A stretch of 64,000 bases of DNA from Candidatus Puniceispirillales bacterium (GCA_045565515.1 JBJLFF010000031.1:15972-79971); one strand, 5' to 3'. Shown: positions 4,757-36,826, counted from the stretch's first letter. A program made the numbers and translations. Notes: generated by a model from the letters alone, not told the origin.

Positions 4757-6371
4757 TTAATACTTCTCTTTTTCCAACGTGGTTTGAGCTGCTAACCACT
4801 CCTTCAGATTCCATTTTTTCAATTATTGTAGCAGCTCTATTATAACCAATTTTGAGATGTCTTTGAATAAAACTCGTGCTTGCTTTTCTTTCTCTCGCAA
4901 CTAAAGCAACGGCTTGATCATACAAATCGTCACCGCTATTGGCTTTAAACTCACCTAGATCAGTATTATTTTCTTCTCGTTCAACAACAACTTCATCGTC
5001 ATACTCTGGGTCACCTTGTTGTTTCAAGAAGTTGACAACACTTTCTACTTCCTCATCTGACACGAATGGTCCATGGATACGTGTAATTCTTCCCCCACCC
5101 TCCATGAAAAGCATATCACCTTTTCCTAAAAGCTGTTCACCGCCTTGCTCCCCTAAAATTGTGCGGCTATCAATTTTTGATGAAACTTGGAATGATATTC
5201 TGGTTGGGAAATTAGCTTTTATTGTTCCAGTTATAACATCAACTGATGGTCTTTGAGTTGCCATAATTACATGTATTCCAGCAGCTCTTGCCATTTGAGC
5301 AAGTCTTTGAACTGCAGCCTCAATATCTTTTCCAGCTACAAGCATAAGGTCTGCAACTTCATCGATTACAACAACTATCATTGGAAGAGGAATTAAACTT
5401 ATATCTTGATCTTCATAAACAGGTTTACCTGTTTCTGAATCAAATCCAGTTTGAACTCTGTGAGACAATGTTTCTCCACTCGCTTTAGCCTGAGATAGTC
5501 TTTTGTTATAACCAGTTATATTTCTTACACCTAGTTTTGACATTAATTTGTAACGTTCTTCCATTTCTCTGACTGCCCATTTAAGAGCCATAACTGCTTT
5601 AGGTGGTTCAGTAACTACTGGAGTTAGCAAATGAGGTATTCCATCGTAAACAGATAACTCTAACATTTTAGGGTCTACTAGTATTAGTCTACATGTTTCA
5701 GGTGTGTGCTTGTAAAGAATAGATAAAATCATACCGTTAACAGCAACAGACTTTCCAGATCCTGTTGTTCCTGCAACTAGTAAATGTGGCATTGCAGATA
5801 AATCCCTAACAATAGGCTGACCTGCAATATCTTTTCCTAAAGCAACTGGTATATTAGATTTAGTTTCATGCCATTTATCACTCTCAAATATCTCTCTTAA
5901 CAAAACAGTTTCTCTATCTAAATTTGGTAATTCAACACCTATAACATTTTGCCCAGGTACCACTGCTACTCTTACAGAAATAGCACTCATAGATCTCGCG
6001 ATATCATCTGCTAAACTAACAACTCTAGATGTTTTCGTTCCAGGCGAGGGATTTAGATCATATCTTGTAACAACTGGCCCAGTTAAGGCTGTAGCAATAT
6101 CTCCTTTAATTCCAAAATCATCTAATACGTTTTCTAGCATTCTGGAATTTGAATTAAGAACATCATCTGAGGGGCCAGCCAACCCCTCAACGGGAGGATA
6201 TAATAAATCTACAGAAGGTAAATTATATCCATTTGAAGTTTCTAAATTTAAAGAAGTTTGCCTTGGTTTTTTTCTATCAGTAGATCTAATGTTATTTATA
6301 CTCTTCCTTTTATTTCCAATTGAAGGTTCAATTCTTCTTGAACGTTTAGCTGAGTTTTTTTGCTTGGGCAT
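4743..6371 (-). CDS. ftsK: DNA translocase FtsK, linker plus motor plus gamma domain (C-terminal fragment of a frame-interrupted gene)
   Basis: Walker A GTTGSGKS, Walker B VVVIDE, RAAGIHVIMATQRP, and C-terminal winged-helix gamma domain (SFIQRHLKIGYNRAATIIEKME). It lacks its own membrane anchor; the reading frame joins 6346-7038 if one A of the A7 run at 6355-6361 is removed. Confidence 0.9.
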   Translation of the reverse strand: MPKQKNSAKRSRRIEPSIGNKRKSINNIRSTDRKKPRQTSLNLETSNGYNLPSVDLLYPPVEGLAGPSDDVLNSNSRMLENVLDDFGIKGDIATALTGPVVTRYDLNPSPGTKTSRVVSLADDIARSMSAISVRVAVVPGQNVIGVELPNLDRETVLLREIFESDKWHETKSNIPVALGKDIAGQPIVRDLSAMPHLLVAGTTGSGKSVAVNGMILSILYKHTPETCRLILVDPKMLELSVYDGIPHLLTPVVTEPPKAVMALKWAVREMEERYKLMSKLGVRNITGYNKRLSQAKASGETLSHRVQTGFDSETGKPVYEDQDISLIPLPMIVVVIDEVADLMLVAGKDIEAAVQRLAQMARAAGIHVIMATQRPSVDVITGTIKANFPTRISFQVSSKIDSRTILGEQGGEQLLGKGDMLFMEGGGRITRIHGPFVSDEEVESVVNFLKQQGDPEYDDEVVVEREENNTDLGEFKANSGDDLYDQAVALVARERKASTSFIQRHLKIGYNRAATIIEKMESEGVVSSSNHVGKREVLIDER

Positions 6372-7038
6372 TTTGTTTTAAAGACTTAAATAAAAAACCA
6401 ATAAGGTACTTTATAAATTTAATTATTGGTAAAATTATAAATTTTAGAAATCCTATTTCTTTTTTAGAAGCAGTACAAGACCATAAGAAAATTGGTAAAC
6501 TTATAAAAAGTGCAAGAATTAAAAATGGCCAATTACCACCTCGTAAATAACCAAATGCCCAACCATCATACAGTTTTGGTATAAATAAACTTATTAAGTG
6601 ACCAACTGCTCCACCCATTCCCTCTGGTAAAATTACTGCTTTTTGTGGAAAAATTGATAAAAATAAAGACAAGAGAATTATTGATGGAATCAATAAAATA
6701 ATTCTTATTCGCTTCTTATGTATATGTTCATTTCGTAAAAACTTAAAGCCCCAGAAATATCCAAAAATACATATAAATACACTTCCAGCACCAAATAAAT
6801 GAAGCAATACTCCCGATATATTAGAGCCATAATTCCCTAATATATTTACTGTTTCTTTAGTGGAAGATTTAAAATAGTATATAGGGTCACTAGGATCAAA
6901 ACTCCAAAATGAAACTATAATTGAAGTTATAAAGATTATTATTGTCAGTCCAAAAATTTCATTTAAGCGCGATTTAAAGAATTCTCTAAACCCTTTTGGT
7001 AAAAAAGTAGAACCATTTCTTGTATTAGCATCATTCAT
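6346..7038 (-). CDS. ftsK: FtsK N-terminal membrane domain (N-terminal fragment of the frame-interrupted ftsK)
   Basis: About 230 aa with several hydrophobic helices and an FtsK-like N-terminus (LNEIFGLTIIIFITSIIVSFWSFDPSDP). It ends within the A7 tract region and overlaps the next fragment by 26 nt in a different frame. Confidence 0.7.
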   Translation of the reverse strand: MNDANTRNGSTFLPKGFREFFKSRLNEIFGLTIIIFITSIIVSFWSFDPSDPIYYFKSSTKETVNILGNYGSNISGVLLHLFGAGSVFICIFGYFWGFKFLRNEHIHKKRIRIILLIPSIILLSLFLSIFPQKAVILPEGMGGAVGHLISLFIPKLYDGWAFGYLRGGNWPFLILALFISLPIFLWSCTASKKEIGFLKFIILPIIKFIKYLIGFLFKSLKQNAQAKKLS

Positions 7039-14356: not shown

Positions 14357-15403
14357 CTACTTATATCTTTCTGCGACATTTTCTTTAGTATTTCTAGCTA
14401 AAGCATTTATAGCAGAATCAAGATTAACACTTCCCAATACATTGTTATCATCATCCACTATAGAAAAAGAGTTACTTTTAGATGTGTTTAGAATTGGAAG
14501 AGCTTCATCAATTGTCATGTTCAATTTAAGGCCTTTTCCAGATCCTTTTACTTTACTATTCATAATAGAACGTAATTCTATTACCTTGCTTCTATTAATG
14601 TCTTTGATAAAATCTTTTATGTAAGCATCTGCAGGTTTCATAATAATTTCTTGAGGGTCACCCTCTTGAACAACTTTACCGTCTCGTAAAATAGCAATAT
14701 TATCTCCAATCCTTAGCGCTTCATCTAAGTCATGGGTTATAAATATAATTGTTTTATGTAACTCTTGTTGCAATTCTAAGAGGATATTCTGCATATCAGT
14801 TCTAATCAGTGGATCTAAAGCTGAGAAAGCTTCATCCATCAATAGAATAGGAGCATCTGTAGCTAATGCTCGTGCTAAACCCACTCTTTGTTGCATACCC
14901 CCTGATAATTGTGCAGGATATCTCTCCTCAAATCCAGCTAGTCCCACACGGTGAATCCATCTGTGGCTTTTATCTTTAGCAACACTCTCCTTAACCCCTT
15001 GAATTGTTAGACCATAGGCAACATTCTGTGATACTGTTTTGTGAGGCAAAAGAGCAAACTTTTGAAAGACCATTGAAGTAGATTTTCTTCTGAACTCTCT
15101 CAGCTGGCTTTGAGACATTGTTAATACATTTACACCATCAACGTATAACCCTCCTGAGGTAGGCTCTATTAATCTATTAATATGGCGAATTAATGTAGAT
15201 TTACCAGAACCTGAAAGACCCATAATGACCTGAATTTTTTTTTCAGGTATAGCTAAATTAATATTATCTAAACCAAGAACATGATTGTGTTGATCAAGTA
15301 GCTCTTGTTTGCTCATTCCATTTTTAATTGAATCAACAAAAGATTTGTCTTTTGCTCCAAAAATTTTGTAGAGATTTTTAATTTCAATCTTTGTATTATT
15401 CAT
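14357..15403 (-). CDS. proV: glycine betaine/proline-type ABC transporter ATP-binding protein
   Basis: Walker A GLSGSGKST, signature LSGGMQQRV, Walker B LLMDEAFSALD, C-terminal regulatory extension. Start placed at ATG 15403 (MNNTKIEIKNLYKIFG), overlapping the proW stop by 8 nt. Confidence 0.9.
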   Translation of the reverse strand: MNNTKIEIKNLYKIFGAKDKSFVDSIKNGMSKQELLDQHNHVLGLDNINLAIPEKKIQVIMGLSGSGKSTLIRHINRLIEPTSGGLYVDGVNVLTMSQSQLREFRRKSTSMVFQKFALLPHKTVSQNVAYGLTIQGVKESVAKDKSHRWIHRVGLAGFEERYPAQLSGGMQQRVGLARALATDAPILLMDEAFSALDPLIRTDMQNILLELQQELHKTIIFITHDLDEALRIGDNIAILRDGKVVQEGDPQEIIMKPADAYIKDFIKDINRSKVIELRSIMNSKVKGSGKGLKLNMTIDEALPILNTSKSNSFSIVDDDNNVLGSVNLDSAINALARNTKENVAERYK

Positions 15404-16286
15404 GTTCTTTACCATATCTATGAGCTTGAAGGCGTTTTCCATACCTTTGTGACACTCTGTCAAAGATAATCGCAAGTGCAACTATGGCTAAACCATTCAT
15501 TAGACCTAAAGTTAGATATTGATTTTGTATAGATTGTAAAACAGGCATTCCAAGACCTTTAACTCCAATCATAGAAGCTATGACAACCATAGCTAAAGCC
15601 ATCATTATTGTTTGGTTAACACCTGCAAAAATATTTGGAAGTGCCAAAGGTATTTGTACTGAAAATAATTTTTGTCGGTAATCTGATCCAAAAGCATCAG
15701 CAGCTTCTAGAACATCTTTATCAACTAATCTTATACCTAGATTTGTAAGTCGAATAATTGGTGGTAATGCGTAAACTATTACAGCAATGAGTCCAGGTAC
15801 TCTTCCAATGCCTAAAAGCATAACAACTGGCAATAAATACACAAAAATAGGAATTGTTTGCATAAGATCAAGAACTGGGGTTATAGCTGCCTGAACTCTG
15901 TCATACCTAGACATTAAAATACCAATTGGAATACCTATTGCAATACATATAACCGTCGCAACTGATATAAGTGATATTGTAGCCATCATATCTTTCCACA
16001 TTCCAAAGTAACCTATTATTATAAAGGAAAGAACTGATCCTAAAGCAAGTTTCCAACTCCTTGAACCCAAGTAAGCCAATCCAGCAACAATAACGAGAAT
16101 TATTGGCCAAGGTGCTGCAATTAAGATTTTTTCAAGTTTAACTAAAAAGAAATATAGTGGATCAAAAAAAGCTTCTATATCTGCTCCATATTTTCTTGAA
16201 AAACTTCGAAAAGAGGCATCTATTCCTTTTTTTAAATCTCTTAAGTCGCTTCTTCCTAGACTAGGTATTTCTGTCCAAAAATCCAT
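15396..16286 (-). CDS. proW: glycine betaine/proline-type ABC transporter permease
   Basis: Multi-helix permease with the EAA-type loop (LEAADAFGSDYRQKLFSVQIPLALP), flanked by proX and proV. Confidence 0.9.
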   Translation of the reverse strand: MDFWTEIPSLGRSDLRDLKKGIDASFRSFSRKYGADIEAFFDPLYFFLVKLEKILIAAPWPIILVIVAGLAYLGSRSWKLALGSVLSFIIIGYFGMWKDMMATISLISVATVICIAIGIPIGILMSRYDRVQAAITPVLDLMQTIPIFVYLLPVVMLLGIGRVPGLIAVIVYALPPIIRLTNLGIRLVDKDVLEAADAFGSDYRQKLFSVQIPLALPNIFAGVNQTIMMALAMVVIASMIGVKGLGMPVLQSIQNQYLTLGLMNGLAIVALAIIFDRVSQRYGKRLQAHRYGKEHE

Positions 16287-16297
16287 TTAACTTATCC

Positions 16298-16337
16298 AAA
16301 GAATAATAATCACCGCGACTACAAATAGCCGCGGTGA
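16298..16337 (-). terminator. intra-operon hairpin/terminator between proX and proW
   Basis: Perfect 8-bp GC-rich stem TCACCGCG/CGCGGTGA (16310-16317 / 16330-16337) with a 12-nt loop. It is followed on the minus strand by UUAUUAUUCUUU. Confidence 0.5.
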
Positions 16338-16354
16338 AATTTATTTTTAAAATC

Positions 16355-17359
16355 TTATAAAGAAGATTTAACTTTTGAAGCTACTTCTGAGCTAACCCAT
16401 GTAGTCCAAACATCTTCATATTTTTCTAAGAATTCAATGGCTGCATCAATCCCTTGTGCTTGATTGTCATCCATATAAACAAGCATTTTACCCATAACAT
16501 CTCCAGGGTAAATACGCTTCGAAAAATAGTCCATTGCTGTTGAAGCTTGGTCTTTAAAGTTAGTCGTTACAACTGTATGAACTTCAGATTGTGTCCATGA
16601 AGAAGGCTTTGGATCAGCACAGTCTTGCTCAGCTTTTGCAATACAACCATCCCAGTTATCTGCCCCAGCGAATGGAACACCAAAATCCATCATCTTCATT
16701 CCAAATCTTCCCACAGGTGCAGTAGGTGCCCAATAATAACCAAACCAGTTGTCACCTCTTTCTACTGCTTTTGCCATAGAAGCATCTAGGCCAGCTTGTG
16801 AACCTGGATCAATTAATATCCACCCTTTTTTCTCCATTTCAAAAGCTCTGAATAGATTTATGTTCGATAACTGGCATCCCCATCCTGCAGGACAACCAAT
16901 AAACTCTCCTTTTGATGGATCTTCCTTTGCGGGGAAAAGATCTGGTCTTTCAAGTATATCTAGAACAGTTTTAATCCCAGGATTTTTTTCTAAAGTATAA
17001 GATGGTACCCACCATCCTTCCCCTAAATCAGTAATAGGCATTTTCCTTGCTGAGTGAAGCCTTCCTTCATCCATAGCAGCAAAAAGAGGCTCTCTTACAG
17101 CGTTAATCCATAATTCTGCGGCAACATCAGGTTGCCCCTTTTCATTCATTGAAGCAAATGTAGTAGTGGTTGCACCAGCAACTAGTTCAATTTCACATCC
17201 GTATCCTTCTTCAAGAATGATCTTATCAACATTAGCCATTAGGGTTGCAGATGGCCAATTCATATCTGCCATAGTAATAGAACCACAACTTGCTACTGCT
17301 AGATTTGAAGTTAAAGCCAAAGTAATAGCAGATATTGCGGTAGTTAGAATTTTTTTCAT
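16355..17359 (-). CDS. proX: glycine betaine-type ABC transporter substrate-binding protein
   Basis: Signal peptide MKKILTTAISAITLALTSNLAVASCG, then an OpuAC/ProX-like body rich in Trp (WW.P.Y, YYWAP). Start placed at ATG 17359, preceded by GGGAGAAGAG, instead of ORF-track 17428. Confidence 0.85.
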   Translation of the reverse strand: MKKILTTAISAITLALTSNLAVASCGSITMADMNWPSATLMANVDKIILEEGYGCEIELVAGATTTTFASMNEKGQPDVAAELWINAVREPLFAAMDEGRLHSARKMPITDLGEGWWVPSYTLEKNPGIKTVLDILERPDLFPAKEDPSKGEFIGCPAGWGCQLSNINLFRAFEMEKKGWILIDPGSQAGLDASMAKAVERGDNWFGYYWAPTAPVGRFGMKMMDFGVPFAGADNWDGCIAKAEQDCADPKPSSWTQSEVHTVVTTNFKDQASTAMDYFSKRIYPGDVMGKMLVYMDDNQAQGIDAAIEFLEKYEDVWTTWVSSEVASKVKSSL

Positions 17360-17373
17360 ACTCTTCTCCCAAA

Positions 17374-17434
17374 GAAATTTCATTTTATGATATGTATTTA
17401 TAGAATCGCTCATATAGCATAGATTCATATCATA
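17374..17434. repeat. direct repeat copy A (proX leader/promoter region)
   Basis: Shares an identical 19-mer GATATGTATTTATAGAATC (17389-17407) and an 11-mer TTCATATCATA (17424-17434), in the same order and spacing, with copy B 170 bp away. Confidence 0.6.
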
Positions 17435-17679: not shown

Positions 17680-18294
17680 TTAATCATTATCATCATTCTC
17701 AGCTCCAGCTCCATTATCTCTTGATTCTTTGCTCTTTGGAACAAGTGCGTTAACAGATATGCTTTGTAATTCGTTCCAGATTTTTCTTTCTATTTTTATT
17801 TCGTTAGATGAAAAATTATAAAACGGAGGTAAGAATTTTTTCTTTTGAATAGTTATTTTCACATTATTTCGATTAAAACTATTGTTCCAATAAAATTTAT
17901 TATCATTTACATAACTGATTACTTCTGATGAAAATAATATTTGGAAATTTATAACTTTATTGATAAGAGCAAGGCCTAATAACAATATAGGTGAATCTAA
18001 TTTTTCAAATGTAATTTTGTCATACAGGCCACATCTAAAATTGTCTATAGCTGAAATGCCGTTGTAAACAACCTGGCTATCTCCAAATCCAATAGAATTT
18101 TTTGAAACATGTATTTTAGTTTTCCTGTATGTTGGATTTTTAAAGCAATTAAGAGCCTCCTGTGAAGCGTTAATATTAAAACTTTCTAGTTTTGCAACAG
18201 CTTGTGAAATTTCTTCACAAATACCAACGTCTATGTTTGAACCTATTCCAGAATTATATATTAAATTTTTGAGTTCACTTTGAGAACATATCAT
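17680..18294 (-). CDS. hypothetical protein, no recognisable family (204 aa, acidic C-terminal tail)
   Basis: Uninterrupted ORF sharing one base with the stop of the upstream 578-aa ORF. I see no membrane helices or motifs I can assign. Confidence 0.6.
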   Translation of the reverse strand: MICSQSELKNLIYNSGIGSNIDVGICEEISQAVAKLESFNINASQEALNCFKNPTYRKTKIHVSKNSIGFGDSQVVYNGISAIDNFRCGLYDKITFEKLDSPILLLGLALINKVINFQILFSSEVISYVNDNKFYWNNSFNRNNVKITIQKKKFLPPFYNFSSNEIKIERKIWNELQSISVNALVPKSKESRDNGAGAENDDND

Positions 18295-20030
18295 TAATTA
18301 CAGCTCAATGCGGGTAACCACCAGTCATCATTTTTGCCTAATGGCAGTTCTTCTGCTAATGGAGCTCCCTGGAATAAGTTTACCCTTGTCCATTTATCTG
18401 ACTTTGGATCAAATTTTGAGGCACCAAAAAATGATAACTTAAATCTTAACATATCAATAGGAAGGCAATTATTTCCTATTAAATTACTTTGAATTTCAGA
18501 GTAAGGTGCCCACATATTTGTTTGCACTCTTTTGACAATATATCTATGAGAGGGATATTTCATGAGAAATTCTGCTATGCACAAGTCTCTTGAAAAATCT
18601 TTTAAGTCATTATTTAAAGCTTGAACTTTTTTAGCAATATCTAAAGGTTGCTCTAATTCTGATCCATTTTCAGAAAATCTATTACCTAGGCGCGGTTCTA
18701 ATTTCTCTTCTGAAACATACCAAAATTTAGAGTTAGCCTCCTCAAGGTCAAAATTAATTTTAAGCGCCCAGTCATAATTTTTATTTATAAAGTCAGTTAA
18801 TTCAAATATCTTCATATCAGGTTTTAAAGAAACATCTTTGCTGCTTTCAAGGCAATGCTCCAAATCATCAATATCCTTGCCCCCTATCTCAAGAATTAGA
18901 GAGACCATCAATTCATGACATTCTGTAGAATAATTTCTGGTGGTGTTAAAAAGATAATTAAGTGGGTATGATTTAGATAATAATTTATTAGAAATCTCAA
19001 TTTTAATTTTTTTCCATTCATTTCTTAAATTATTAATTCTATTTTGTTGTCTTTTGTCATCAGTTGACCATTCTTTTAAGTGGTAAAATGCTCTATCTAT
19101 TAATTTCAAAACTCTCCTTTTTTGAAAATCTGTAAGCTTTTCTTTATCTAGCATTCTGGTGAGAGCACTTTCCTTAACCATTAACCAATTATTAATGAGT
19201 ATTGGATGCTTAACTAAAAAAGGAGCCATACCAAGACCAGTTGAATTACCTATTCCAATATGACGTTGAATATTTTTATCAAGAAAAACAAAATTTGTTT
19301 TATTTAAATTTTTAGCTACGTGATGGACAAGTTTGATTGAAAAGTGTCGGACTAAATAAACAGTCAACATTTCAACTTGGAAAGGAGGTGACATATAGGC
19401 ATCTAATTTTACCTCTTCACGATCTCTTATTCCAAATTTACCATTTCCATAAACAGCAGTTGTTCTCATGAAATATCCAATTTCATTTATTAAATTTTTA
19501 GATGGTTGCACACCTTTAGAAAGCATCTCTGTAACCGTTTTAAATAAACGTACAGATTTATTCGCTCTGCTGATAACTAGTTCTTTTTTTGAAAACCTAC
19601 CTGCTTCTTGAAGGGGTAATTGTTTTCTTAATCTCTCTATATCTTTATTCTCTGGAATGCCGTCAAAAAGTGCAAAAGAAGTATCCCAAGCAGAAGCTAT
19701 AACTCTATCAGTCCTCATCGAATCATCTAAATAATTAGAAAAAGCGATTAATGAATAATGTTTCTTATCTATATTAATTGTGAAAACAGCATGACCAAAA
19801 CCTTTATTATCCATTTGCCATTCTTGCGTTTTGACATGAGATTTATTTTTTATTAGTTTTCTAATAAGAATACGCATAAAAGAAAGTCTTGTTGGGAAAC
19901 AGCTACCCATTTTTTCAAGTGTCATAACTTCTGAAGGTGGCCTTCGAAACTTTAAGTCAAAACTTTTTTTTATGTCTAACAAATTCATAATACTATCTTC
20001 TAAAAGGATTTTTTGAAAAAATTCAACCAA
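18294..20030 (-). CDS. hypothetical protein, no recognisable family (about 565-578 aa, soluble)
   Basis: 1.7-kb uninterrupted ORF in AT-rich DNA, tightly packed behind the M19 dipeptidase gene. The start is either 20030 (overlapping the dipeptidase stop) or ATG 19988. No motif recognised by eye. Confidence 0.75.
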   Translation of the reverse strand: MVEFFQKILLEDSIMNLLDIKKSFDLKFRRPPSEVMTLEKMGSCFPTRLSFMRILIRKLIKNKSHVKTQEWQMDNKGFGHAVFTINIDKKHYSLIAFSNYLDDSMRTDRVIASAWDTSFALFDGIPENKDIERLRKQLPLQEAGRFSKKELVISRANKSVRLFKTVTEMLSKGVQPSKNLINEIGYFMRTTAVYGNGKFGIRDREEVKLDAYMSPPFQVEMLTVYLVRHFSIKLVHHVAKNLNKTNFVFLDKNIQRHIGIGNSTGLGMAPFLVKHPILINNWLMVKESALTRMLDKEKLTDFQKRRVLKLIDRAFYHLKEWSTDDKRQQNRINNLRNEWKKIKIEISNKLLSKSYPLNYLFNTTRNYSTECHELMVSLILEIGGKDIDDLEHCLESSKDVSLKPDMKIFELTDFINKNYDWALKINFDLEEANSKFWYVSEEKLEPRLGNRFSENGSELEQPLDIAKKVQALNNDLKDFSRDLCIAEFLMKYPSHRYIVKRVQTNMWAPYSEIQSNLIGNNCLPIDMLRFKLSFFGASKFDPKSDKWTRVNLFQGAPLAEELPLGKNDDWWLPALSCN

Positions 20031-20989
20031 TTTCTTCCCATAACGTCTTTAATATTATCCTCTGAAAACCCAAATTTTTCTAATCCTAACTGAATATTTT
20101 GGAAGTTACTATTATTTTCAAACCATTTTGGTTGTTTAGGAAATCCTGGATTGTCAACACTACCTTCGCCAAAATCTTTTTGTTTAGTCCACCTTCCATT
20201 CCTCATCCACTCAACTATACTGTCAGGTTGGTCTTGGCAAAGATCACTTCCAATACCAATGTTTTTTACACCCATTATATCAGCAGTTTTTGCTATCATC
20301 TCACAGAAATCATGTAATTTACATTCTGAGCCATTTTTAAGATGATGCGGATACAATGAAAAGCCAATCATACCATCACTTTCTGATAGACTTTTTAAAA
20401 TTAAGTCAGATTTATTTCTTTTCGCAGAATGCCAAAAACTTGGGTTTGCATGAGTTATTGATATTGGTCGAGAAGAGAATTCAATGGCTTCAAGAGTGGA
20501 CTTTTCAGAGGAATGGCTCATATCAATCACCATTCCAACTCTATTCATTTCTTTAATAACTTCTTTCCCCATCCTGGTTATGCCAGTATCATTAAGTTCA
20601 TAACAACCTGTAGCTAGTAGAGATTGATTGTTATAAGTGAGTTGCATGAATTTAATTCCAAGTTTTTGCCAGACTTCTACTAGACCAATGTCATCTTCAA
20701 TAGGAGATGGGTTTTGAAATCCAAAAATTATAGCTGTTCTACCTTTAGCTTTGGCTTTAATAATATCTTCAACATTGTGAGCATGCGTAATTAAATGTGA
20801 ATATTCTAAAAAATAAGAATTCCAATTTTCTATATTTGATATGGTTTCTCTAAAATTCTCATGGTAAGCGATTGTAACATGAACACAATCCAATCTACCT
20901 TCACGCATTTGTTCAAAAATTTTTTTAGACCAATTTGCATATTGTAGACAGTCAATATAAACATTTTCATTAGGATTTTCAGTAAGCAT
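20000..20989 (-). CDS. membrane (renal)-dipeptidase family M19 metallopeptidase
   Basis: 329 aa with the M19 pattern: N-terminal Y.DC.., HVTI, DMSHSSEKS, ITHANP, IGIGSDL. Confidence 0.85.
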   Translation of the reverse strand: MLTENPNENVYIDCLQYANWSKKIFEQMREGRLDCVHVTIAYHENFRETISNIENWNSYFLEYSHLITHAHNVEDIIKAKAKGRTAIIFGFQNPSPIEDDIGLVEVWQKLGIKFMQLTYNNQSLLATGCYELNDTGITRMGKEVIKEMNRVGMVIDMSHSSEKSTLEAIEFSSRPISITHANPSFWHSAKRNKSDLILKSLSESDGMIGFSLYPHHLKNGSECKLHDFCEMIAKTADIMGVKNIGIGSDLCQDQPDSIVEWMRNGRWTKQKDFGEGSVDNPGFPKQPKWFENNSNFQNIQLGLEKFGFSEDNIKDVMGRNWLNFFKKSF

Positions 20990-21061: not shown

Positions 21062-22432
21062 TTAAGTTTTAAATAAATCTCTACAATTTTTTAGTTTCTC
21101 TATATTAAAAAGTTTATCATAGAGTTTTTTTGGTTCTTTATCAAATTTTGAAAATTTTAGGCACGATTGAAATTTATCAAAGAGCATATTATTTGTTAGA
21201 GGATTTGACGCTGATCCTATAGGTGCACCAACAAATTTTTCAAAATAATTCCCATCATTTGTATATAATTGAACATTTGACCATTCAGGACAAATATTAT
21301 CTTTTGAATTTATTTTTTTTGGTAATTTTTCGACATTCATAAAAATTTTTTTCATCAAAATTTGAATGCTTGTATCAAAAATGTATTCATTGTTTAAATG
21401 TTCTAATTTTATTGAACCAAACTTAATAATCATAGCAATTGCAAATTGAATGCTAAATTGGGCCTCTTTTGCATTTTTAGGATCGTCGTAGGTTAAATTC
21501 GATTCTATTATAGGAGGAACTCCACAAACTATTTTTTTTACATCATTAATCTTAATTTTTTCTGATTTTACAATTGAATTGATGCCGTCAACCGCCGCAT
21601 GGCTTGCATAGCATACGGGATATTTTTTAATATCTACGCCCGGAGTTATTATACTAAAATCTTTACCAATTCTTTCTATGTAATCATAATTGAAATCTTT
21701 ATCATTAATAACATTTATAATGCCATTTCTATCCTCAAAAACCTCTAAAGGGCCTGTTGCTCCTTTTATGGCTAAAGAAGATATAATTATTCCACTTTCT
21801 GCAGCCTTTCCACAATAGTAATGTTTGCCATTAGTTCCACGTACTGCACGAATTGCTCCTACTCCAGAAATTGCTAGTGAAAGAGCATTCTCGACCTCTT
21901 TAGTTTTAAGCTTAGCTAAAGAAGCAACCCCTGCAGTACTCCCAGCTGATCCTAGAACAGATGTTGTCCACCATCCTTTATCATAAATTTTATTGGATAG
22001 AGATCTTGCAATAGCAAATTCGATTTCTAGACCAATGATAAAACTTTTTAATAAAGCATTTCCACTTAAAGAATTTTCTTGAGCAAAAGCTAATACTGCT
22101 GGGAATACAACTGCTGAAGCGTGAACAACTCCCGCATAACAATTATCATCAAAATCTAAGGAGTGCGCCGATGCACCATTAACAAATGCAGCTCCAGATG
22201 AATTTAATGTTTTATTTTTTCCAATTATGGTGCATTTGCCAGATGAATAAATTTCTAAAGAAGAATCAAAAATCAAATTTGTAGAGCTTGTATTGCTTCC
22301 TGCTAAAGTAACTCCACAAATATCAATAATTAATTTTTTAGCAACATTTGTAACGTCGTCTGGGAGTTTAATTGAATTTAAATAGTTTACTCCCTCTGCG
22401 AGTTTTTTGATTATCAACGTTTTAGATTTCAT
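21062..22432 (-). CDS. MmgE/PrpD-family protein (2-methylcitrate-dehydratase-like fold, specificity unknown)
   Basis: 456 aa; FVNGASAHSLDFDD motif and overall length typical of MmgE/PrpD. Confidence 0.85.
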   Translation of the reverse strand: MKSKTLIIKKLAEGVNYLNSIKLPDDVTNVAKKLIIDICGVTLAGSNTSSTNLIFDSSLEIYSSGKCTIIGKNKTLNSSGAAFVNGASAHSLDFDDNCYAGVVHASAVVFPAVLAFAQENSLSGNALLKSFIIGLEIEFAIARSLSNKIYDKGWWTTSVLGSAGSTAGVASLAKLKTKEVENALSLAISGVGAIRAVRGTNGKHYYCGKAAESGIIISSLAIKGATGPLEVFEDRNGIINVINDKDFNYDYIERIGKDFSIITPGVDIKKYPVCYASHAAVDGINSIVKSEKIKINDVKKIVCGVPPIIESNLTYDDPKNAKEAQFSIQFAIAMIIKFGSIKLEHLNNEYIFDTSIQILMKKIFMNVEKLPKKINSKDNICPEWSNVQLYTNDGNYFEKFVGAPIGSASNPLTNNMLFDKFQSCLKFSKFDKEPKKLYDKLFNIEKLKNCRDLFKT

Positions 22433-22481: not shown

Positions 22482-23441
22482 TTATTTTTTATTAAAGTAG
22501 CCCGCTCTTACAGCAGAGCCAATTAAATTACATATAAATCTTCCTGCAGTTATTGCGGTTATACCATTCACATCTTTGCTTGGAGTTATTTCAACAATAT
22601 CCATTCCTAAAACCTTTCCTTTTTTAACAAGGCCTTGTATGAGAGTTCTCATCTGTGAGTAGTTAACCCCACCTGGTGCAGGGCCAGCAACAGCAGGCAT
22701 TATAGTTGGATCCACACCGTCTGCATCGATAGTAAGGTAATAATTGTGACCATCTGGGATTCTATCCAAAATAGACTTCATACCAACTTCCTGCAGCTCT
22801 ATATCAGTAATTAAGTTTGATCCATAATCTAGAGCAGCCTGGGCTTCTTCTGGCCGTGCGCTTCCAGCGGCACGCAGGCCGATTTGAAAAATTTCACTAA
22901 TATGATCCATTTCCGAAGCTCTTCTTATGACGCTTGACAAGCCATCACTAACGCCATGAAAAACATCCCTCCAGTCAATATGTGCATCAACCTGAATTAA
23001 TGTTATTGGCCCATGATTTTCTAATGCTCTAAATACAGGAATAGGAATAGCATGGTCACCTCCCAAAATAATTGGCATTGCGCCTGTTGATAAAATTTTT
23101 CTAACAGCTTCTTCAGATCTTTTATGGTTACCTGCCACGTCCTTAGCTTCACCGACAACATCACCACAATCGACAACTTTTATATCTTCACCATTTAAAA
23201 GTGTTCCACCAATATCAAAATCATATCTATCTAAACCCCTAAGGGCTCGTTCACAGTATCTTCTAATATGAGTTGGAGCTGTACACTGATCATTACTTGC
23301 TTCGCCCATAGAATAAGGATCCCCAAAAGGAATACCTAAAAATGCTATATCAGCTTCAAAATCATCCAAGTCGGTAACTATTGGAAAATCATGGAAACTC
23401 TGAAATTCTTTTTTGGGTGGTGTGGTAATCTTGTTTGACAT
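22482..23441 (-). CDS. arginase/agmatinase/formiminoglutamase-family ureohydrolase (paralogue 1)
   Basis: Mn-site motifs GGDHAIPIP, VDAHIDWRD and TIDADGVDP are present; 319 aa. Confidence 0.9.
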   Translation of the reverse strand: MSNKITTPPKKEFQSFHDFPIVTDLDDFEADIAFLGIPFGDPYSMGEASNDQCTAPTHIRRYCERALRGLDRYDFDIGGTLLNGEDIKVVDCGDVVGEAKDVAGNHKRSEEAVRKILSTGAMPIILGGDHAIPIPVFRALENHGPITLIQVDAHIDWRDVFHGVSDGLSSVIRRASEMDHISEIFQIGLRAAGSARPEEAQAALDYGSNLITDIELQEVGMKSILDRIPDGHNYYLTIDADGVDPTIMPAVAGPAPGGVNYSQMRTLIQGLVKKGKVLGMDIVEITPSKDVNGITAITAGRFICNLIGSAVRAGYFNKK

Positions 23442-26986: not shown

Positions 26987-27556
26987 CTATCCACGAATTT
27001 TAAATTTTTCTTTAGCATCTGGAACATTATTTATTGCATGTAATTGTGTAACTAATTTAGTTAATTTTGGGATATAAGTTTTTGCCACTAATCGAGTATA
27101 ACTCAGAAAATATTCTATGTATCTATCTGTAGCACGAAATTCTTTTTCAGAATAATATTCAATTATTCCTAATTCTATTGCGCTATCAACCATATCGCTT
27201 GCAGCTTTTCTTGTTATCATAATTTGATTACTCACTATACTTTTTGTAGTTACTAAACCGCTAAAATAATTGTAAAAAATTAGATTCATAAAATAAACGC
27301 GTGCATTGCTTTTATTACACCAAGTTCCTATATCTTCAAATTCCTTTATTTGACTTGGTTTTCCAATAAATCTATGTGCCCACATTTCTAACTCACCTAA
27401 TGCCAGTCCAGCCATAATTTCATTGTTTTTAATAAAAGATTCATCTTGAAATGGATGAAATCTTAAATCTTTACTCTTTTCACCATTCCTCAAATGTGGG
27501 TCTCTTCTTTCTTGATTAGAAGTTGTCCGAGCATTAATATTATTTGCTTGAGGCAA
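26987..27556 (-). CDS. hypothetical protein, possible winged-helix (MarR-like) regulator
   Basis: 189 aa. The central segment TTKSIVSNQIMITRKAASDMVDSAIELGIIEY resembles a helix-turn-helix plus wing. It sits between the two divergent catabolic arms. The assignment is tentative. Confidence 0.4.
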   Translation of the reverse strand: MPQANNINARTTSNQERRDPHLRNGEKSKDLRFHPFQDESFIKNNEIMAGLALGELEMWAHRFIGKPSQIKEFEDIGTWCNKSNARVYFMNLIFYNYFSGLVTTKSIVSNQIMITRKAASDMVDSAIELGIIEYYSEKEFRATDRYIEYFLSYTRLVAKTYIPKLTKLVTQLHAINNVPDAKEKFKIRG

Positions 27557-28981: not shown

Positions 28982-29956
28982 ATGACAGAAAGATTATCTT
29001 TAACTGAACTTCCAAAAGGCAATTCAAATGGGTTTCTTGGTTTCCCAGTAAACCTGGATTTAGACAACTTGAATGCTCAAATTGCTATATTAGGAGTGCC
29101 ATATGGCTTGCCATACTATCCGAATGAATTAGCAAATGACCAGAGTACAGCGCCTGATATTCTTAGGCAAAATGCGCAAGATGCTGCATGGGATGAACCC
29201 AGGACATTGAATCATTTTGATTGGGATCTAGGAGGGCCTCTTCTTAATAATCAGAATATTAATATTATTGATCTTGGGAATGTTACAGCTGATTTCAGGG
29301 ATCCTAGGGAGCATTATAAAAGAGCTGAAGAAGTTGCTAGAAAGGTATTTTCTTCAGATATTACATTAATATCTATTGGTGGAGATCATGGAATTCCTAT
29401 TCCAATTATGAGAGCATTACCTGAAGAAAATCCAATTGTTTTGATACAAATTGATGCTCATATGGATTGGCGTGACGAAGTTAATGGAGAAAGAGAAGGC
29501 TATTCAAGTCCTATAAAAAGAGCTTCAGAATTAAAATCAATAAAATCTATATTCCAAATTGGTTTAAGGGGTGTAGGCAGTGGAAGACAACAAGAGTTTG
29601 AGGATGCAAAAGTATACGGTTCAAATTTAATAAGTGCATACGAAGTTCATGAAATAGGAATAAAAAATGTTCTAAAAAAAATTCCAGATGGAGCCAATTT
29701 TTATATTACTGTTGACGCTGATGGGATGGACCCAACAATAATGCCAGCTGTCAACGCTCCTACTCCTGGAGGATTGAATTGGGTGCAAATTAGAGAGCTT
29801 ATTCACGGAATAGTAAAAAAGGGGAAAGTTATCGGTTTTGACCTTGTAGAGATCTCTCCATCATTTGAAAAGGGAAATATAACTCTCGTTCACGCTGAAA
29901 GACTTATTTGTAATTTTATTGGTGCAATGGTTAGGGCTGGGTACTATGATAAATAA
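28982..29956 (+). CDS. arginase/agmatinase-family ureohydrolase (paralogue 2)
   Basis: GGDHGIPIP, IDAHMDWRD, TVDADGMDP. Roughly half of the aligned residues are identical by eye to the 22482-23441 product. Confidence 0.9.
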   Translation: MTERLSLTELPKGNSNGFLGFPVNLDLDNLNAQIAILGVPYGLPYYPNELANDQSTAPDILRQNAQDAAWDEPRTLNHFDWDLGGPLLNNQNINIIDLGNVTADFRDPREHYKRAEEVARKVFSSDITLISIGGDHGIPIPIMRALPEENPIVLIQIDAHMDWRDEVNGEREGYSSPIKRASELKSIKSIFQIGLRGVGSGRQQEFEDAKVYGSNLISAYEVHEIGIKNVLKKIPDGANFYITVDADGMDPTIMPAVNAPTPGGLNWVQIRELIHGIVKKGKVIGFDLVEISPSFEKGNITLVHAERLICNFIGAMVRAGYYDK

Positions 29957-29988
29957 TTTATCATTAAATGACTTTTAAATATAAATAA

Positions 29989-31248
29989 TTGAAAATTTTG
30001 ACCTTAGAAAAAAATATTAAAAATATAGAAAAATATGAGGGTTTTGTTAAATCATTTGTTCAAGAAACTTTCCATAAAGATCTAATATTAAAAGCTTTTA
30101 CCAAAAATAAGTCAAAGAATATAGAGTCACCTTCACTCAGCAATATTTCTTTTGCTGTGAAAGACATCATAAATGTTGATGGGTATCCAACAAGGTGTGG
30201 TTCAGAACTCCCCTCAGAGCTTTTTTTAGGAAAGCAATCCAGCGTTGTAACAAGTTTATTAAATTCAGGTGCAATATTTATTGCTAAAACTGTGACTGCA
30301 GAATTTGCAATTTCTGACCCAGGTGAAACAAGAAACCCAAGAAATTTAAAACATACACCTGGAGGGTCCTCTAGCGGTTCAGGTGCGTCAGTTGCTGCTG
30401 GGTTTTGTGATTTTGCCTTAGGAACCCAAACATGTGGGTCAGTCATAAGACCAGCTGGTTATTGCGGTGTAATAGGATACAAGCCTAGTTTTGGACGTAT
30501 AAGTAGAGACGGAGTTTTATTATTTTCAAAATCAATGGATCACGTTGGTGTCATTGCTAAAAATTTAAATTTGTTGGATACAATATTACCAATAATAGTT
30601 AAAAATTGGAAAACAAAACAAAAGATACTAAATGAACAAATAGTTTTGGGAATACCTGAGGGGTCTTATTTAGATCTAGCAAAATCAAATATTTTAAAAC
30701 AGTTCCTAGGTGTAAGTAAAAATTTAGAAACTCAATTTGAGATTAAAAAAACACATCTATTAAATAATATTTCAGAATATAATGATGATCTTGATAAGAT
30801 AACATTTTCAGAACTTTATTCAGTTCACTCAAAATGGTTTGAAAAGTATAGAAATCTATATAAACCAATTAGCAAAGAAACTATTGAACTAGGAAAATCA
30901 ATATCCCTTGATAATTTAGGAGTTCTTCTTAAAAAAGCTCGAATAGCCCAAAAATATATTCAGTCATTGATGTTAGCTAATGGAATTGATGCATGGATTG
31001 CTCCTGTTGCGCCTGATTTTGCACCTTTAGGAATAAAAACTACTGGTGATTACAGAATGAATTCCATTTGGAGCTATACAGGTTTACCAGTTATATCAAT
31101 ACCAACTGGATCCAATAATAAAAATTTACCTTACTCAATTCAGATTATTGGAAGATTTGGTGAAGATGAAAAACTACTAGAAATTTCAAAAATGGTTGAG
31201 GCTGAGTTAAATATTAAAAGTTTAAAAAACGAATGGGAATTAGGTTAA
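29989..31248 (+). CDS. amidase-signature family amidase
   Basis: TTG start; GGSSSGSGASVAAG signature with an upstream Lys (AVKDIINV); 419 aa. Confidence 0.85.
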   Translation: MKILTLEKNIKNIEKYEGFVKSFVQETFHKDLILKAFTKNKSKNIESPSLSNISFAVKDIINVDGYPTRCGSELPSELFLGKQSSVVTSLLNSGAIFIAKTVTAEFAISDPGETRNPRNLKHTPGGSSSGSGASVAAGFCDFALGTQTCGSVIRPAGYCGVIGYKPSFGRISRDGVLLFSKSMDHVGVIAKNLNLLDTILPIIVKNWKTKQKILNEQIVLGIPEGSYLDLAKSNILKQFLGVSKNLETQFEIKKTHLLNNISEYNDDLDKITFSELYSVHSKWFEKYRNLYKPISKETIELGKSISLDNLGVLLKKARIAQKYIQSLMLANGIDAWIAPVAPDFAPLGIKTTGDYRMNSIWSYTGLPVISIPTGSNNKNLPYSIQIIGRFGEDEKLLEISKMVEAELNIKSLKNEWELG

Positions 31249-31285
31249 ATTTATATCAATGAGTTTGACTTAGAAATAATTTATC

Positions 31286-32113
31286 ATGGCTTATAAAGTA
31301 TTTAAAATATCTGATGGTATTTCCTTAATCCAAGAAACCTATGTTGCTAATTTTATGAGGTGTAATATTTGGCATGTTCATGGAAAAAAATTCGATTTAA
31401 TTATTGATACGGGAATGGGGCTAAGTCCTTTGAAGGAATGGGTAATACAGCAAACTGATAATCCTGTTAAGGCAATTATTACACATTCCCACTTTGACCA
31501 TTGCGGTTCTTTGCATGAATTTGATTGTAGGCTTGGTCATAGGGAAGAGTCTGATATAATGAGCAATGCATTAAATGAACAGATAGTATATTCAGGCGCA
31601 TGGAAAGAAATTGAAATAATAGATAAAAAGCAATTTCCTAATTATTCTGGAAAATCATTTTACGTAACACCTGCTCCATTGACTGGTTTTTTAGATGATG
31701 GCGATGTAATTGATCTAGGAGACAAAGCTTTTCAAATATTACATTTACCAGGACATTCGCCTGGTTCTATTGGATTGTTAAACATTAAATCAAAAGAGAT
31801 TTTTAGTGGCGATGCATTATACGATGGAGAGCTTTTAGATAATTTCTATCATTCTGATAAAAATGAATATAAAAAAACATTATTAAGGTTAAAAGCGCTT
31901 GATGTAAAAATATTCCATGGTGGTCATTTCCCTTCTTTTGGAAAACGAAGAGCAAACGAGATTATAGACAACTATTTTGCTGGCTCAAACAAAATAAAAG
32001 ATGTTCATTCATGGTTTGAAAGTATTAACAAAATAAAAACTAATAATTTTTCAGATCAGGACTGGAGCTTATCAAAAAATTTAATTTCTCAAAATGGGAA
32101 TAGATGTTCATGA
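31286..32113 (+). CDS. metallo-beta-lactamase-fold hydrolase
   Basis: ITHSHFDHCG (HxHxDH), later HLPGHSPG and GD; 275 aa. Confidence 0.85.
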   Translation: MAYKVFKISDGISLIQETYVANFMRCNIWHVHGKKFDLIIDTGMGLSPLKEWVIQQTDNPVKAIITHSHFDHCGSLHEFDCRLGHREESDIMSNALNEQIVYSGAWKEIEIIDKKQFPNYSGKSFYVTPAPLTGFLDDGDVIDLGDKAFQILHLPGHSPGSIGLLNIKSKEIFSGDALYDGELLDNFYHSDKNEYKKTLLRLKALDVKIFHGGHFPSFGKRRANEIIDNYFAGSNKIKDVHSWFESINKIKTNNFSDQDWSLSKNLISQNGNRCS

Positions 32114-32214
32114 CCATATTGCATTTGGAAATAAATATGGTATAAGAAAAATGCAGGTCGGTCACAGCCCTGCTTAAAAAAAGGCCTTATACAATTCAAA
32201 TATTGGATATTTAA

Positions 32215-32442
32215 ATGGTTTTTTTTACAAATTTAATTAAAAATAATTTTATAAATAAAAATCAAGTTAACTTTTCAGTTGGCCAAAAAGTTTACAGTAA
32301 GAAGAATGGTTCTGTTTGTTCAATAATTAAAGAAATAGAGCTAAACAACATTAAACATTTTGAACTAAGTATTGAAAATGACGTTTATAAAAGAGAAGTT
32401 ATTTTAAGCGAACATGCATTAAGGTTGGATTATAAACTATAA
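32215..32442 (+). CDS. hypothetical small protein (75 aa)
   Basis: ORF only; no motif; sits in a spacer between convergent genes. Confidence 0.3.
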   Translation: MVFFTNLIKNNFINKNQVNFSVGQKVYSKKNGSVCSIIKEIELNNIKHFELSIENDVYKREVILSEHALRLDYKL

Positions 32443-32973
32443 TTATACTATATTTCCAACTTTTGCTTCCAACCGCTTAGCCTCAGACTTATAACTATTT
32501 AAACTTATAATTCTTCTACTATACTTATCTTGAAGCTCCAATAAATCTATTTCTATCTCTAATAGTTGAGTACGCTTTGACTTTGTTTTACTATTAGTCC
32601 TTATTTTATTTTTAATGTCTTTTTTATTTGTTCTATTAGTTTGTGGACGATAAAAAATTATAAAAACTAAAATAACTAAAACCACTAAAATGATTGAAGC
32701 TGTAATTTTGCCATTAGTACTTAATGAGTTAGAAAATGAATTAAAAATAATTTTTATGTCTGTTAATTCTAAATCTATTCTATTAAATATGATTTCAAAA
32801 ATTGATGTTAAATATTCTGTTAATTGTGACCAAATTACTTTTAATTCATAGCCGAAGTTAACCTCATTTATAGCTGAATTGAATAAATTTTTTAACAATT
32901 CCCAAAAAATAAAAAAATAGTCAGTTACTGAGTTTATAAACTTACTAAATTGGTTGTTTAACTCTGACATCAA
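32443..32973 (-). CDS. hypothetical single-pass membrane protein with basic/coiled C-terminal tail
   Basis: One clear hydrophobic helix (ITASIILVVLVILVFIIFY) followed by a K/R-rich region and a heptad-like tail. Confidence 0.5.
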   Translation of the reverse strand: MMSELNNQFSKFINSVTDYFFIFWELLKNLFNSAINEVNFGYELKVIWSQLTEYLTSIFEIIFNRIDLELTDIKIIFNSFSNSLSTNGKITASIILVVLVILVFIIFYRPQTNRTNKKDIKNKIRTNSKTKSKRTQLLEIEIDLLELQDKYSRRIISLNSYKSEAKRLEAKVGNIV

Positions 32974-36810: not shown

Positions 36811-36826
36811 AACTTTTTAATTTAGA

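Follow-up and report, generated by a model that had tools for sequence, protein, structure and literature searches.

The window analyzed here is a stretch of 64,000 nucleotides from a Candidatus Puniceispirillales bacterium (GCA_045565515.1, JBJLFF010000031.1:15972-79971). Three consecutive genes on its minus strand, between positions 17680 and 20989, are the subject of this work. The first encodes an M19-like TIM-barrel protein of 329 amino acids (aa) (20000..20989; Pfam PF01244), the second a large protein of an unnamed, uncharacterised family, here called BIG (18294..19988, 564 aa), and the third a small protein of 204 aa that was assigned to the DUF3726 type from its open reading frame (ORF), Pfam match and fold (17680..18294). 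The three genes form a widespread, self-contained module.

The start of the small gene shares one base with the stop of BIG. The junction reads AGC TGT AAT TAATG ATA, in which base 18294 is common to the TAA stop and the ATG start, as an earlier note on this DNA had described. The same note placed the larger ORF against or across the stop of the M19-like gene (TAG at 20000-20002). The two genes are indeed close, but an overlap arises only when BIG is read from a TTG at 20030 (18294-20030, 578 aa), and this extension is probably not translated. An in-frame ATG at 19988, 11 nucleotides (nt) past the TAG, was taken as the start because the BIG homologues are 562-570 aa long and three syntenic Tara contigs call BIG from the equivalent ATG as a protein of 564 aa. 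The closest homologues (P0001-P0004, ENA, 96-98% identical) are publicly called in the TTG-extended 578-aa form, probably because the gene caller placed the start codon too far upstream. The M19-like gene and BIG overlap by 4 nt in many other genomes, and the 4-nt or 1-nt overlaps within the module suggest translational coupling.

All three genes are under purifying selection. Ratios of nonsynonymous to synonymous substitution rates (dN/dS) against two syntenic Tara contigs, with dS close to saturation, were 0.13-0.14 for BIG, 0.13-0.18 for the small gene and 0.04-0.10 for the M19-like gene. The BIG and small ORFs are therefore real genes. This agrees with the earlier note, which had judged them not spurious and both products to be soluble proteins; neutral evolution is not what the ratios indicate, and hydropathy accords with solubility. 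Identity between the module (17680-20989) and Tara contig L103 (9000-12309) is 93% for the M19-like protein, 79% for BIG and 63% for the small protein. Such uneven divergence suggests intra-operon recombination or very different constraints.

The module recurs far beyond this lineage. BIG and the small gene were adjacent in at least 72 of 81 scorable loci. Fusions of the two were common, with many forms of 760-940 aa, including an 814-aa fused gene in Mesorhizobium and the protein P0147, in which DUF3726 occupies residues 584-644. An M19 orthologue was located within 10 kb of BIG in 74 of 85 loci and directly upstream of it, at 58-70% identity, in about 70; in four loci it was 2-4 kb off, and about ten had none within 10 kb. 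The tie to the M19 gene proposed in the earlier note is thus supported by linkage. Distant clades keep the association as well. Clade B (28-30% identity; Sinorhizobium meliloti pSymB, Alloyangia, Bosea and Neorhizobium) displayed the order IclR-BIG-small-M19-ABC, where ABC denotes an ATP-binding cassette transporter. In clade C, in which BIG and small are fused (943 aa), an aldehyde dehydrogenase gene adjoins and the M19 gene is a few genes away.

A scan of one genome per species detected a BIG relative in at least 589 loci or species. The best 80 of these loci belonged to Alphaproteobacteria, Gammaproteobacteria, a deltaproteobacterium and Acidimicrobiales, and the alphaproteobacterial carriers among them were SAR11-like single-cell genomes, SAR116, Rhodobacterales and Rhizobiales. 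More than 8,000 clusters at 90% identity matched BIG at E <1e-3, all of them unnamed or 'hypothetical'. An exhaustive search of 50%-identity representatives gave 1,276 BIG clusters, 359 of them below 1e-30. Identity to Rhizobiales proteins was 50-55%.

BIG belongs to no known family of Pfam, NCBIfam or PDB. It had no match at E<=1 in Pfam-A and NCBIfam and none at E<=10 among PDB sequences, either as a single sequence in phmmer or as a 38-sequence profile. An AlphaFold2 model from 38 sequences reached a mean predicted local distance difference test score (pLDDT) of 86.8 and a predicted template modelling score (pTM) of 0.89. Its N-terminal part is alpha/beta, its middle is long and helical, and its C-terminal part is mixed. 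Foldseek found no match for this model in PDB (best E 1.3, TM <0.15) or BFVD (best E 0.5), and the statement that the fold is an orphan holds for these two collections. The profile searches and structure comparisons proposed in the earlier note thus left BIG without a confident match to a characterised family. Comparisons by hhalign with Ldh_2 (type-2 malate/lactate dehydrogenases), M19, Aldedh and DUF5943 all gave probabilities below 2%. BIG was also considered as a carrier of the missing C-terminal half of Ldh_2, or as a protein with internal repeats; profile-profile comparison, including that of BIG with itself, was negative. The protein is basic (isoelectric point, pI, 9.3), and with a maximum 19-residue Kyte-Doolittle mean of 0.99 it has no transmembrane-like segment.

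Conservation was assessed with 109 diverse members of 28-100% identity at a threshold of at least 93%, the window protein serving as numbering reference. The residues kept are S36, G63, G65, R95, W101, D102, G110, G130, R141, N143, S145, R147, Q161, P162, Y172, R175, G183, G186, R214, G245, G247, N248, G253, W268, E273, W407, W423, R433, R515 and G522. The window BIG carries every residue of the family core (R95, W101-D102, R141-x-N143-x-S145-x-R147, Q161-P162, Y172, R175, G183..G186, R214, G245-x-G247-N248, W268, E273, W423, R433, R515). Three segments stand out: the R-x-N-x-S-x-R motif (residues 140-147, SRANKSVR, 19548..19571), a glycine-rich loop (residues 175-186, RTTAVYGNGKFG, 19431..19466) with R175, G183 and G186, and GIGNSTGLG (residues 245-253, 19230..19256) with G245, G247, N248 and G253. 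The last is the most conserved motif of the family and served as a search pattern. The glycine-rich loop is flexible in the model, with pLDDT <50 at residues 181-188. Self-processing of the pyruvoyl or Ntn type at GN-S-TG was considered and is unlikely, since some members have Ser and others Ala at position 249.

The conserved set comprises seven Arg, one Asp and one Glu, plus Asn, Ser and Tyr; Lys, His and Cys are absent from it. This composition argues against Fe-S, typical metal or kinase chemistry. This pattern of residues suggests an anion-binding (carboxylate) pocket with acid/base catalysis. A different chemistry would follow if the module were an energy-dependent lactam or amide hydrolase with the logic of PxpABC or OplAB, acting as a stand-alone metabolite repair or salvage system. 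BIG and the small protein would then activate a cyclic amide, for example by phosphorylation via the GNGKFG loop, and the M19-like barrel would hydrolyse it. The module is self-contained, about half of the loci place it in unrelated contexts, and BIG has a flexible GxGxxG-like loop, many conserved Arg and many protein kinases in its weak Foldseek lists, all of which would suit this proposal. The kinase matches, however, are non-significant (probability 0.01-0.03, root-mean-square deviation, rmsd, about 20 Å), and a kinase, ATP-grasp or P-loop reading of the GNGKFG loop was rejected as unsupported. K184 of the loop is not conserved family-wide, the only acidic residues at the 93% threshold are one Asp and one Glu, and the Pfam, NCBIfam and PDB-profile searches gave no P-loop, ATP-grasp or kinase match. 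We regard an energy-dependent hydrolase as quite improbable. The earlier note had likewise recognised no P-loop, and no membrane helix; neither protein shows a convincing membrane segment.

The small protein matched PF12525 (DUF3726) with 21.3 bits and E 2.6e-4 over residues 4-52 (18139..18285), slightly under the gathering threshold of 22.1 for this N-terminal profile of about 73 residues. The homologues P0134 and P0136 and those of Hoeflea and L002 scored above the threshold, orthologues bear the RefSeq name 'DUF3726 domain-containing protein', and BLAST clustering grouped the window protein with such homologues. On these grounds it is classed as a DUF3726-type protein. The pair had been called family-less, which stands for BIG against Pfam, NCBIfam and PDB but not for the small protein, given its DUF3726 assignment and its apparent Ldh_2-like fold.

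The small protein diverges much faster than BIG, and a word search found only 16 close relatives. The alignment was built from 72 locus-derived clade-A orthologues. It displayed two conserved blocks flanking a variable middle. The N-terminal block reads S.NE.....KA..G.G.P.G.A.D and the C-terminal one W..L..LA..TYVP.S..SR..GAGAGl.DND, which ends exactly at the stop codon; tail and stop position are kept in nearly all 72 sequences. In the window, the C-terminal helix and tail (residues 173-204, WNELQSISVNALVPKSKESRDNGAGAENDDND, 17683..17778) follow the family consensus. The tail (…LVPKSKESRDNGAGAENDDND) fits it down to the acidic end GAGAENDDND, which the translation confirms as reported before. 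Family members adjoin or are fused to BIG and carry the C-terminal SR..GAGAG..DND motif, and the window protein shows both, with a 1-nt overlap with BIG. Clades B and C end differently from clade A; clade B has a longer tail in which 'S(R)R.AG' is retained. A hydropathy peak of 1.98 at residue 103 falls inside a conserved core segment (motif 'P.Ll'), so residues 103-121, considered as a transmembrane stretch, form part of the core and not an evident anchor.

The natural BIG-small fusion P0154 (809 aa) was modelled with pLDDT 87.1 and pTM 0.91 over the whole chain. Its 22-residue linker is disordered, the C-terminal helix and tail region has pLDDT of about 81-94, and the last six residues are of low confidence. 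Foldseek with this model returned at least ten Ldh_2 structures, with probabilities up to 0.90 and weak E-values (0.6-5), among them 1VBI (0.90), 1X0A, 1Z2I, 3I0P, 2G8Y, YiaK, AllD and DpkA; about 145-170 columns aligned at an rmsd of 3.4-4.9 Å. By hhalign the small protein matched Ldh_2 with a probability of 52% (E 1.5e-4) over the N-terminal helices, the region of its Pfam match. The C-terminal extension of the long fused clade C forms matched the small protein at 98% (E 2e-13) and Ldh_2 positions 25-190 at 94% (E 1.3e-7). A Pfam search gave no direct match between the small protein and PF02615 (Ldh_2). With 204 aa, the protein is too short for a full two-domain Ldh_2 of about 330-360 aa.

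Compared with Ldh_2 enzymes (PF02615: the Pyr2C/Pip2C reductase DpkA, AllD, YiaK, ComC), the small protein appears to share the fold and profile of their N-terminal half and covers about 150 of about 340 residues. It differs in having an added family-specific C-terminal helix and SR..GAGAG..DND tail and in being coupled or fused to BIG. In the hhalign alignment the Ldh_2 segment 'ERDG.rSHG' faces 'L...g.d/G' in the small protein, with no conserved His, and the window protein has a single His. The SHG segment, which follows the first helical hairpin of Ldh_2, is the one that we take to carry the catalytic His. DUF3726 therefore appears to be a truncated Ldh_2-like subunit without the SHG motif, and would be catalytically dead.

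A rival reading gives the small protein another role. Its acidic C-terminus (…DND-COOH) could work as a LysW-like amino-group carrier that BIG loads and the M19-like protein unloads, or as a pseudo-substrate plug in the M19-like pocket, while its Ldh_2-like surface might recruit full-length Ldh_2. Tail and stop position are conserved as described, BIG is basic where the tail is acidic, a full-length Ldh_2 gene directly follows the small gene in many operons, and the RN..D motif of the M19-like protein retains its Arg, presumably the binder of the substrate C-terminal carboxylate in canonical M19 enzymes. However, the ends differ in clades B and C, the last six residues are not confidently placed in the fusion model, BIG gives no evidence of ligase features, and a ligase plus a hydrolase alone would run a futile cycle. 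A carrier or adaptor is the least probable of the readings weighed here, and we consider it very unlikely.

The M19-like protein matched PF01244 with 252.6 bits (E 6.6e-75, cut-off 26), starting only at profile position 28. Its closest PDB entry is 2I5G (E 2.4e-61, 33-35% identity), which we take to be a PA5396-type protein. The active-site motifs are altered: IDCLQY replaces IDGHND, GFQN stands in place of the bridging-Glu motif, and Tyr replaces the His of 'LTH', while DMSH, THANP, GSDL and KRN are retained. In general form the pattern is D-x-L-Q-(Y/C) and G-(F/Y)-Q-N with D-x-S-H, T-H-A-N, G-(S/T)-D and R-N left intact; 57 clade-A sequences share it, as do clade B, clade C and 2I5G.

The binuclear zinc site of M19 enzymes consists of HxD, a bridging Glu, two His and a catalytic Asp, and by motif the window protein does not present it. 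We infer that the clade is devoid of three of the five zinc ligands, namely the HxD alpha-site and the bridging Glu. Canonical M19 dipeptidases (human DPEP1 1ITQ, Streptomyces Sco3058 3ID7, GliJ 5LWZ) belong to the same Pfam family and share the TIM barrel, but their similarity to the window protein is only E 1e-17 to 1e-19 over partial length. Read against human DPEP1 numbering, the motifs of the window protein would keep the two beta-site His, the strand-8 Asp and RN..D, and would be without HxD and the bridging Glu, with His152 changed to Tyr. Because HxD and the bridging Glu are lost across the clade, the protein would not be a canonical binuclear-zinc dipeptidase, and 'membrane dipeptidase' is probably a misannotation for the whole clade. 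The label 'M19 dipeptidase' used in the earlier note is doubtful for this reason, and the L-Xaa-D-Xaa dipeptides that it suggested as assay substrates may miss the real one.

Were the M19-like protein nevertheless an ordinary dipeptidase (for L-Xaa-D-Xaa or X-Pro/X-Hyp), BIG and the small protein would have separate roles in regulation, chaperoning or binding and would merely travel along. The strong Pfam match would fit, as would the Dpp/Opp-type peptide ABC transporters and Amidohydro_3 gene upstream of the module in Hoeflea and Phaeobacter inhibens and the M24 (Xaa-Pro peptidase-like) gene that adjoins some loci. On the other hand, HxD and the bridging Glu are lost in every clade member, gene order and overlaps are kept between clades at 28% identity with strict co-inheritance, and BIG is conserved about like a core enzyme, with 50% identity between SAR11-like bacteria and Rhizobiales. 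A dipeptidase with two passengers is improbable.

Functional information on any relative of the module is limited to PA5396/PP_0308. This M19-like gene and its DUF5943 partner sit in the dimethylglycine (dgc) operon, and mutants of this type are affected in betaine, choline and carnitine use and in PlcH induction, the role being stated as unknown (PMC13492115; PMC12093977 and its Table S1; bioRxiv 10.1101/2021.12.09.472016). Literature searches on PGA1_262p locus tags, 2I5G/cog2355 and S. meliloti pSymB locus tags yielded nothing useful. The dgc-operon pair of Pseudomonas, Vibrio and Burkholderiales resembles the module in having an M19-like subunit with the same HxD loss and Glu-to-Gln change (GFQN), encoded beside a small uncharacterised partner in betaine or methylated-amine catabolic clusters. 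It differs in that its M19-like protein is only 33-35% identical to that of the window, no BIG homologue is present there, no dgcAB was seen next to the module, and its partner DUF5943 (V4R-like, 177 aa) is unrelated to BIG and small. DUF5943 (the PA5397 partner) was tried as a homologue of either and rejected (hhalign probability <1%); it was formerly annotated '4-vinyl reductase'. Five loci were inspected, L095-L099, from Sphaerotilus, Halomonas, Burkholderia, Ralstonia and Paraburkholderia. The order glyA-M19-like-DUF5943-dgcA was found in L095, L098 and L099, and in L095 it runs on through dgcB and etfAB; L096 and L097 are unannotated, and only a DUF5943-type ORF was seen after their M19-like gene.

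The genes around the module differ between lineages. Close relatives of the window organism show full synteny, with an SBP_bac_3 ABC transporter, arginase, PrpD, M19-like, BIG, small and an OpuA ABC transporter in this order. Upstream of the M19-like gene, the window has an MmgE/PrpD-family gene (21062-22432) and an arginase-family gene (22482-23441), both on the minus strand, lineage-specific and identified by Pfam and NCBIfam. Outside this lineage the arginase-family gene was found in 2 of 85 loci and PrpD in 1 of 85. Both were considered as general partners and rejected, since nearly all other loci lack them and their synteny extends no further than close relatives; the tie that the earlier note drew to PrpD-like and ureohydrolase enzymes is confined to this lineage. 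The wider partners point to catabolism of betaine or other methylated osmolytes and not to the guanidino compounds that it had proposed for assays.

Directly downstream, an OpuA-type (glycine-betaine-type) ABC transporter resumes on the same strand 251 nt beyond the small gene (14357..17428, OpuAC Pfam match; ORF bounds: substrate-binding protein 16355-17428, permease 15396-16286, ATPase 14357-15481). No terminator-like site was found between the small gene (17680) and the OpuA binding-protein gene, and the transporter recurs after the module elsewhere, so the pair does not clearly close the operon as had been supposed. A strong terminator-like hairpin (16310-16337, minus strand; 12 bp stem, 7 GC pairs) lies between the OpuAC binding-protein and permease genes and looks like an intra-operon attenuator favouring binding-protein expression. 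No riboswitch or other RNA element was found as a clue to the ligand.

The archetypal clade-A operon consists of a divergent LysR gene followed by aldehyde dehydrogenase - M19-like - BIG - DUF3726 - Ldh_2. Examples come from Aminobacter, Aliiroseovarius, Mesorhizobium, Ruegeria TM1040, P. inhibens and Hoeflea. A transporter, either an OpuA-type ABC system or a BCCT protein, follows the operon or interrupts it. The operon often adjoins soxBDAG together with an AraC/GlxA-type regulator, an MttB-like methyltransferase or a DMGDH-like flavoprotein. Within 10 kb of the 89 clade-A loci, aldehyde dehydrogenase was present in 29, Ldh_2 in 21, LysR in 16, a betaine-type transporter in 15 and Sox or FrmA in 8. 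An OpuA-type transporter follows the module in 12 of the 89, including Aminobacter, Hoeflea, Shinella and Magnetovibrio. The aldehyde dehydrogenases scored best against alpha-ketoglutarate-semialdehyde or succinate-semialdehyde dehydrogenase (SSADH) models, below curated cut-offs. S-(hydroxymethyl)glutathione dehydrogenase (FrmA), a DddP-like M24 protein and RidA were other recurrent neighbours, and clade B loci carried gabT, SSADH and a thiamine diphosphate (ThDP) enzyme. The module is thus a self-contained unit that is frequently built into operons for the breakdown of methylated osmolytes or imino acids. On the megaplasmid of Ruegeria sp. TM1040 (L091 6350-7894), a BCCT-family transporter gene sits between the M19-like gene and BIG, the clearest single hint of a betaine-type osmolyte substrate. 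A Methyltransf_7 gene (SABATH-type carboxyl/N-methyltransferase), of a family unusual in bacteria, adjoins the module in about five unrelated genomes (L002 12447-13571; also L039, L063, L081 and L083).

These surroundings bear on whether the module might be accessory to N-demethylation, handling a by-product (iminium/carbinolamine, formaldehyde adducts) or assisting and maintaining a demethylase, and not acting on the carbon skeleton. The M19-like clade has the same degenerate motifs as PA5396 (2I5G). PA5396-type genes occur with a small partner in glyA-M19-DUF5943-dgcA-dgcB-etfAB operons (PMC12093977), the fitness of PP_0308-9 mutants is impaired on choline, betaine and carnitine (bioRxiv 10.1101/2021.12.09.472016), and soxBDAG, FrmA, MttB-like and DMGDH-like genes lie near the module. 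Yet DUF5943 is unrelated to BIG and small, Sox or FrmA occurs in only 8 of the 89 loci, and the annotated or clustered genes around the sampled loci included no dgcA-like gene, although no search was aimed at dgcA. The commonest partners, aldehyde dehydrogenase and Ldh_2, suggest skeleton catabolism. A role accessory to N-demethylation is unlikely, if less so than the other alternatives.

The reading we prefer, with a probability of roughly 0.4, is that the M19-like protein, BIG and the small protein are three subunits of one heteromeric soluble enzyme that cleaves a C-N bond in methylated-osmolyte catabolism, encoded by a module widely transferred between bacteria. BIG would be the novel core, probably catalytic or substrate-binding, with a cofactor-independent, arginine-rich site for an anionic, carboxylate-bearing substrate. 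The small protein would be a dead, truncated Ldh_2 fold packing on BIG, and its SR..GAGAG..DND tail may complete the active site or tether the M19-like partner. The M19-like barrel, minus the alpha-metal ligands and the bridging Glu, would perform the hydrolytic step at a single metal site; it would keep the two beta-site His, the catalytic-type Asp and the carboxylate-binding Arg. The net reaction would break a C-N bond (amide, enamide or cyclic imine) within the carbon skeleton of a methylated osmolyte that the cell takes up; this osmolyte would be of the betaine type, possibly a proline- or hydroxyproline-like imino acid. One product would be a semialdehyde, to be oxidised by the co-encoded alpha-ketoglutarate-semialdehyde- or succinate-semialdehyde-dehydrogenase-like enzyme, and the other an imino or 2-oxo acid on which the co-encoded full-length Ldh_2 would act. 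The physical complex with the M19-like protein, the hydrolytic or lyase chemistry and the substrate class are what we infer from the conserved residues, models and gene contexts described above.

Several points weigh against a single enzyme of this kind. The M19-like protein may be catalytically inactive, with three of five metal ligands apparently lost, and its ligand assignment comes from motif comparison with human DPEP1 numbering. The Foldseek E-values for the Ldh_2 fold are weak, and the end of the small protein, proposed to reach the active site or the M19-like partner, is the low-confidence part of the fusion model. No catabolic partner of the types counted above lies within 10 kb in 46 of the 89 loci; together with the roughly ten loci without M19, this implies that BIG and the small protein may work without M19 and outside osmolyte catabolism. 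The partners are also heterogeneous, comprising two aldehyde dehydrogenase types, transporters of the OpuA, BCCT, PotD, Dpp and LIV types and, in the window lineage, PrpD and arginase, so that no single substrate is implied. In the literature searched, no paper mentions DUF3726, and no biochemical or genetic data exist for BIG or DUF3726.

The single-enzyme reading has analogues in known systems. The AcnX-type cis-3-hydroxy-L-proline dehydratase (PMC5144071) and the PxpABC 5-oxoprolinase are cofactor-light catabolic enzymes of two or three subunits that serve as functional analogies, and homology is not claimed. They share with the module large and small subunits from overlapping genes that are fused in some lineages, and a setting in imino-acid or osmolyte clusters; PxpA is likewise a TIM-barrel hydrolase dependent on partner subunits. 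In contrast to this likeness in logic, profile, PDB and Foldseek searches detected no sequence or structural relationship between them and the module. Taking the single-enzyme reading further, one may tentatively suppose that the unseen BIG fold, an Ldh_2-derived pseudo-enzyme and a remodelled M19 barrel make up a new heteromeric class of C-N-cleaving hydrolases or lyases, supplying a missing step in methylated-osmolyte catabolism. Its substrate could then, equally tentatively, be an abundant marine or rhizosphere osmolyte, for example of the (hydroxy)proline-betaine type or with another betaine skeleton. Its hosts, at this same speculative level, would be SAR11-like bacteria, SAR116, roseobacters, Rhizobiales, some Gammaproteobacteria and Acidimicrobiales.

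Other features of the window stand apart from the module. A 189-aa ORF without Pfam match (26987-27556, minus strand) heads the ABC/arginase/PrpD/M19 gene string; its position is conserved in the syntenic contigs (L103 2434-3003; L104 and L105), and it may encode a winged-helix regulator of the island. Besides a second arginase-family gene, the plus-strand region 28982-39351 encodes an amidase, a metallo-beta-lactamase-fold protein, a PHP-domain protein and a polyamine-type ABC transporter, and it looks like an island for nitrogen-rich small molecules. At 4743-7038 (minus strand), FtsK appears to be split into two overlapping ORFs, a four-transmembrane (4TM) part (6346-7038) and a motor part (4743-6371); the cause is a frameshift or sequencing error, or else the gene is naturally split.

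Within the examined part of the window (about 4.7-39.4 kb), BIG and the small protein remain the best candidates for undescribed enzymology, as the earlier note had ranked them. By sequence and by fold comparison with PDB and BFVD, the module is an undescribed system around an orphan family. Families so widespread and conserved yet wholly uncharacterised are uncommon: BIG counts more than 8,000 clusters at 90% identity and keeps about 50% identity between SAR11-like bacteria and Rhizobiales, yet it has no name, Pfam model, solved relative or literature. In DUF3726, half of a dehydrogenase has apparently been recruited as a non-catalytic subunit. In the most abundant marine heterotrophs and in plant-associated bacteria, the module shares operons with genes for betaine-type transporters, N-demethylation and semialdehyde dehydrogenases. 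Knowledge of its function would probably close a gap in our picture of the turnover of osmolytes, and hence of dissolved organic nitrogen, and could help to explain the fitness phenotypes of M19-like genes in Pseudomonas betaine catabolism.

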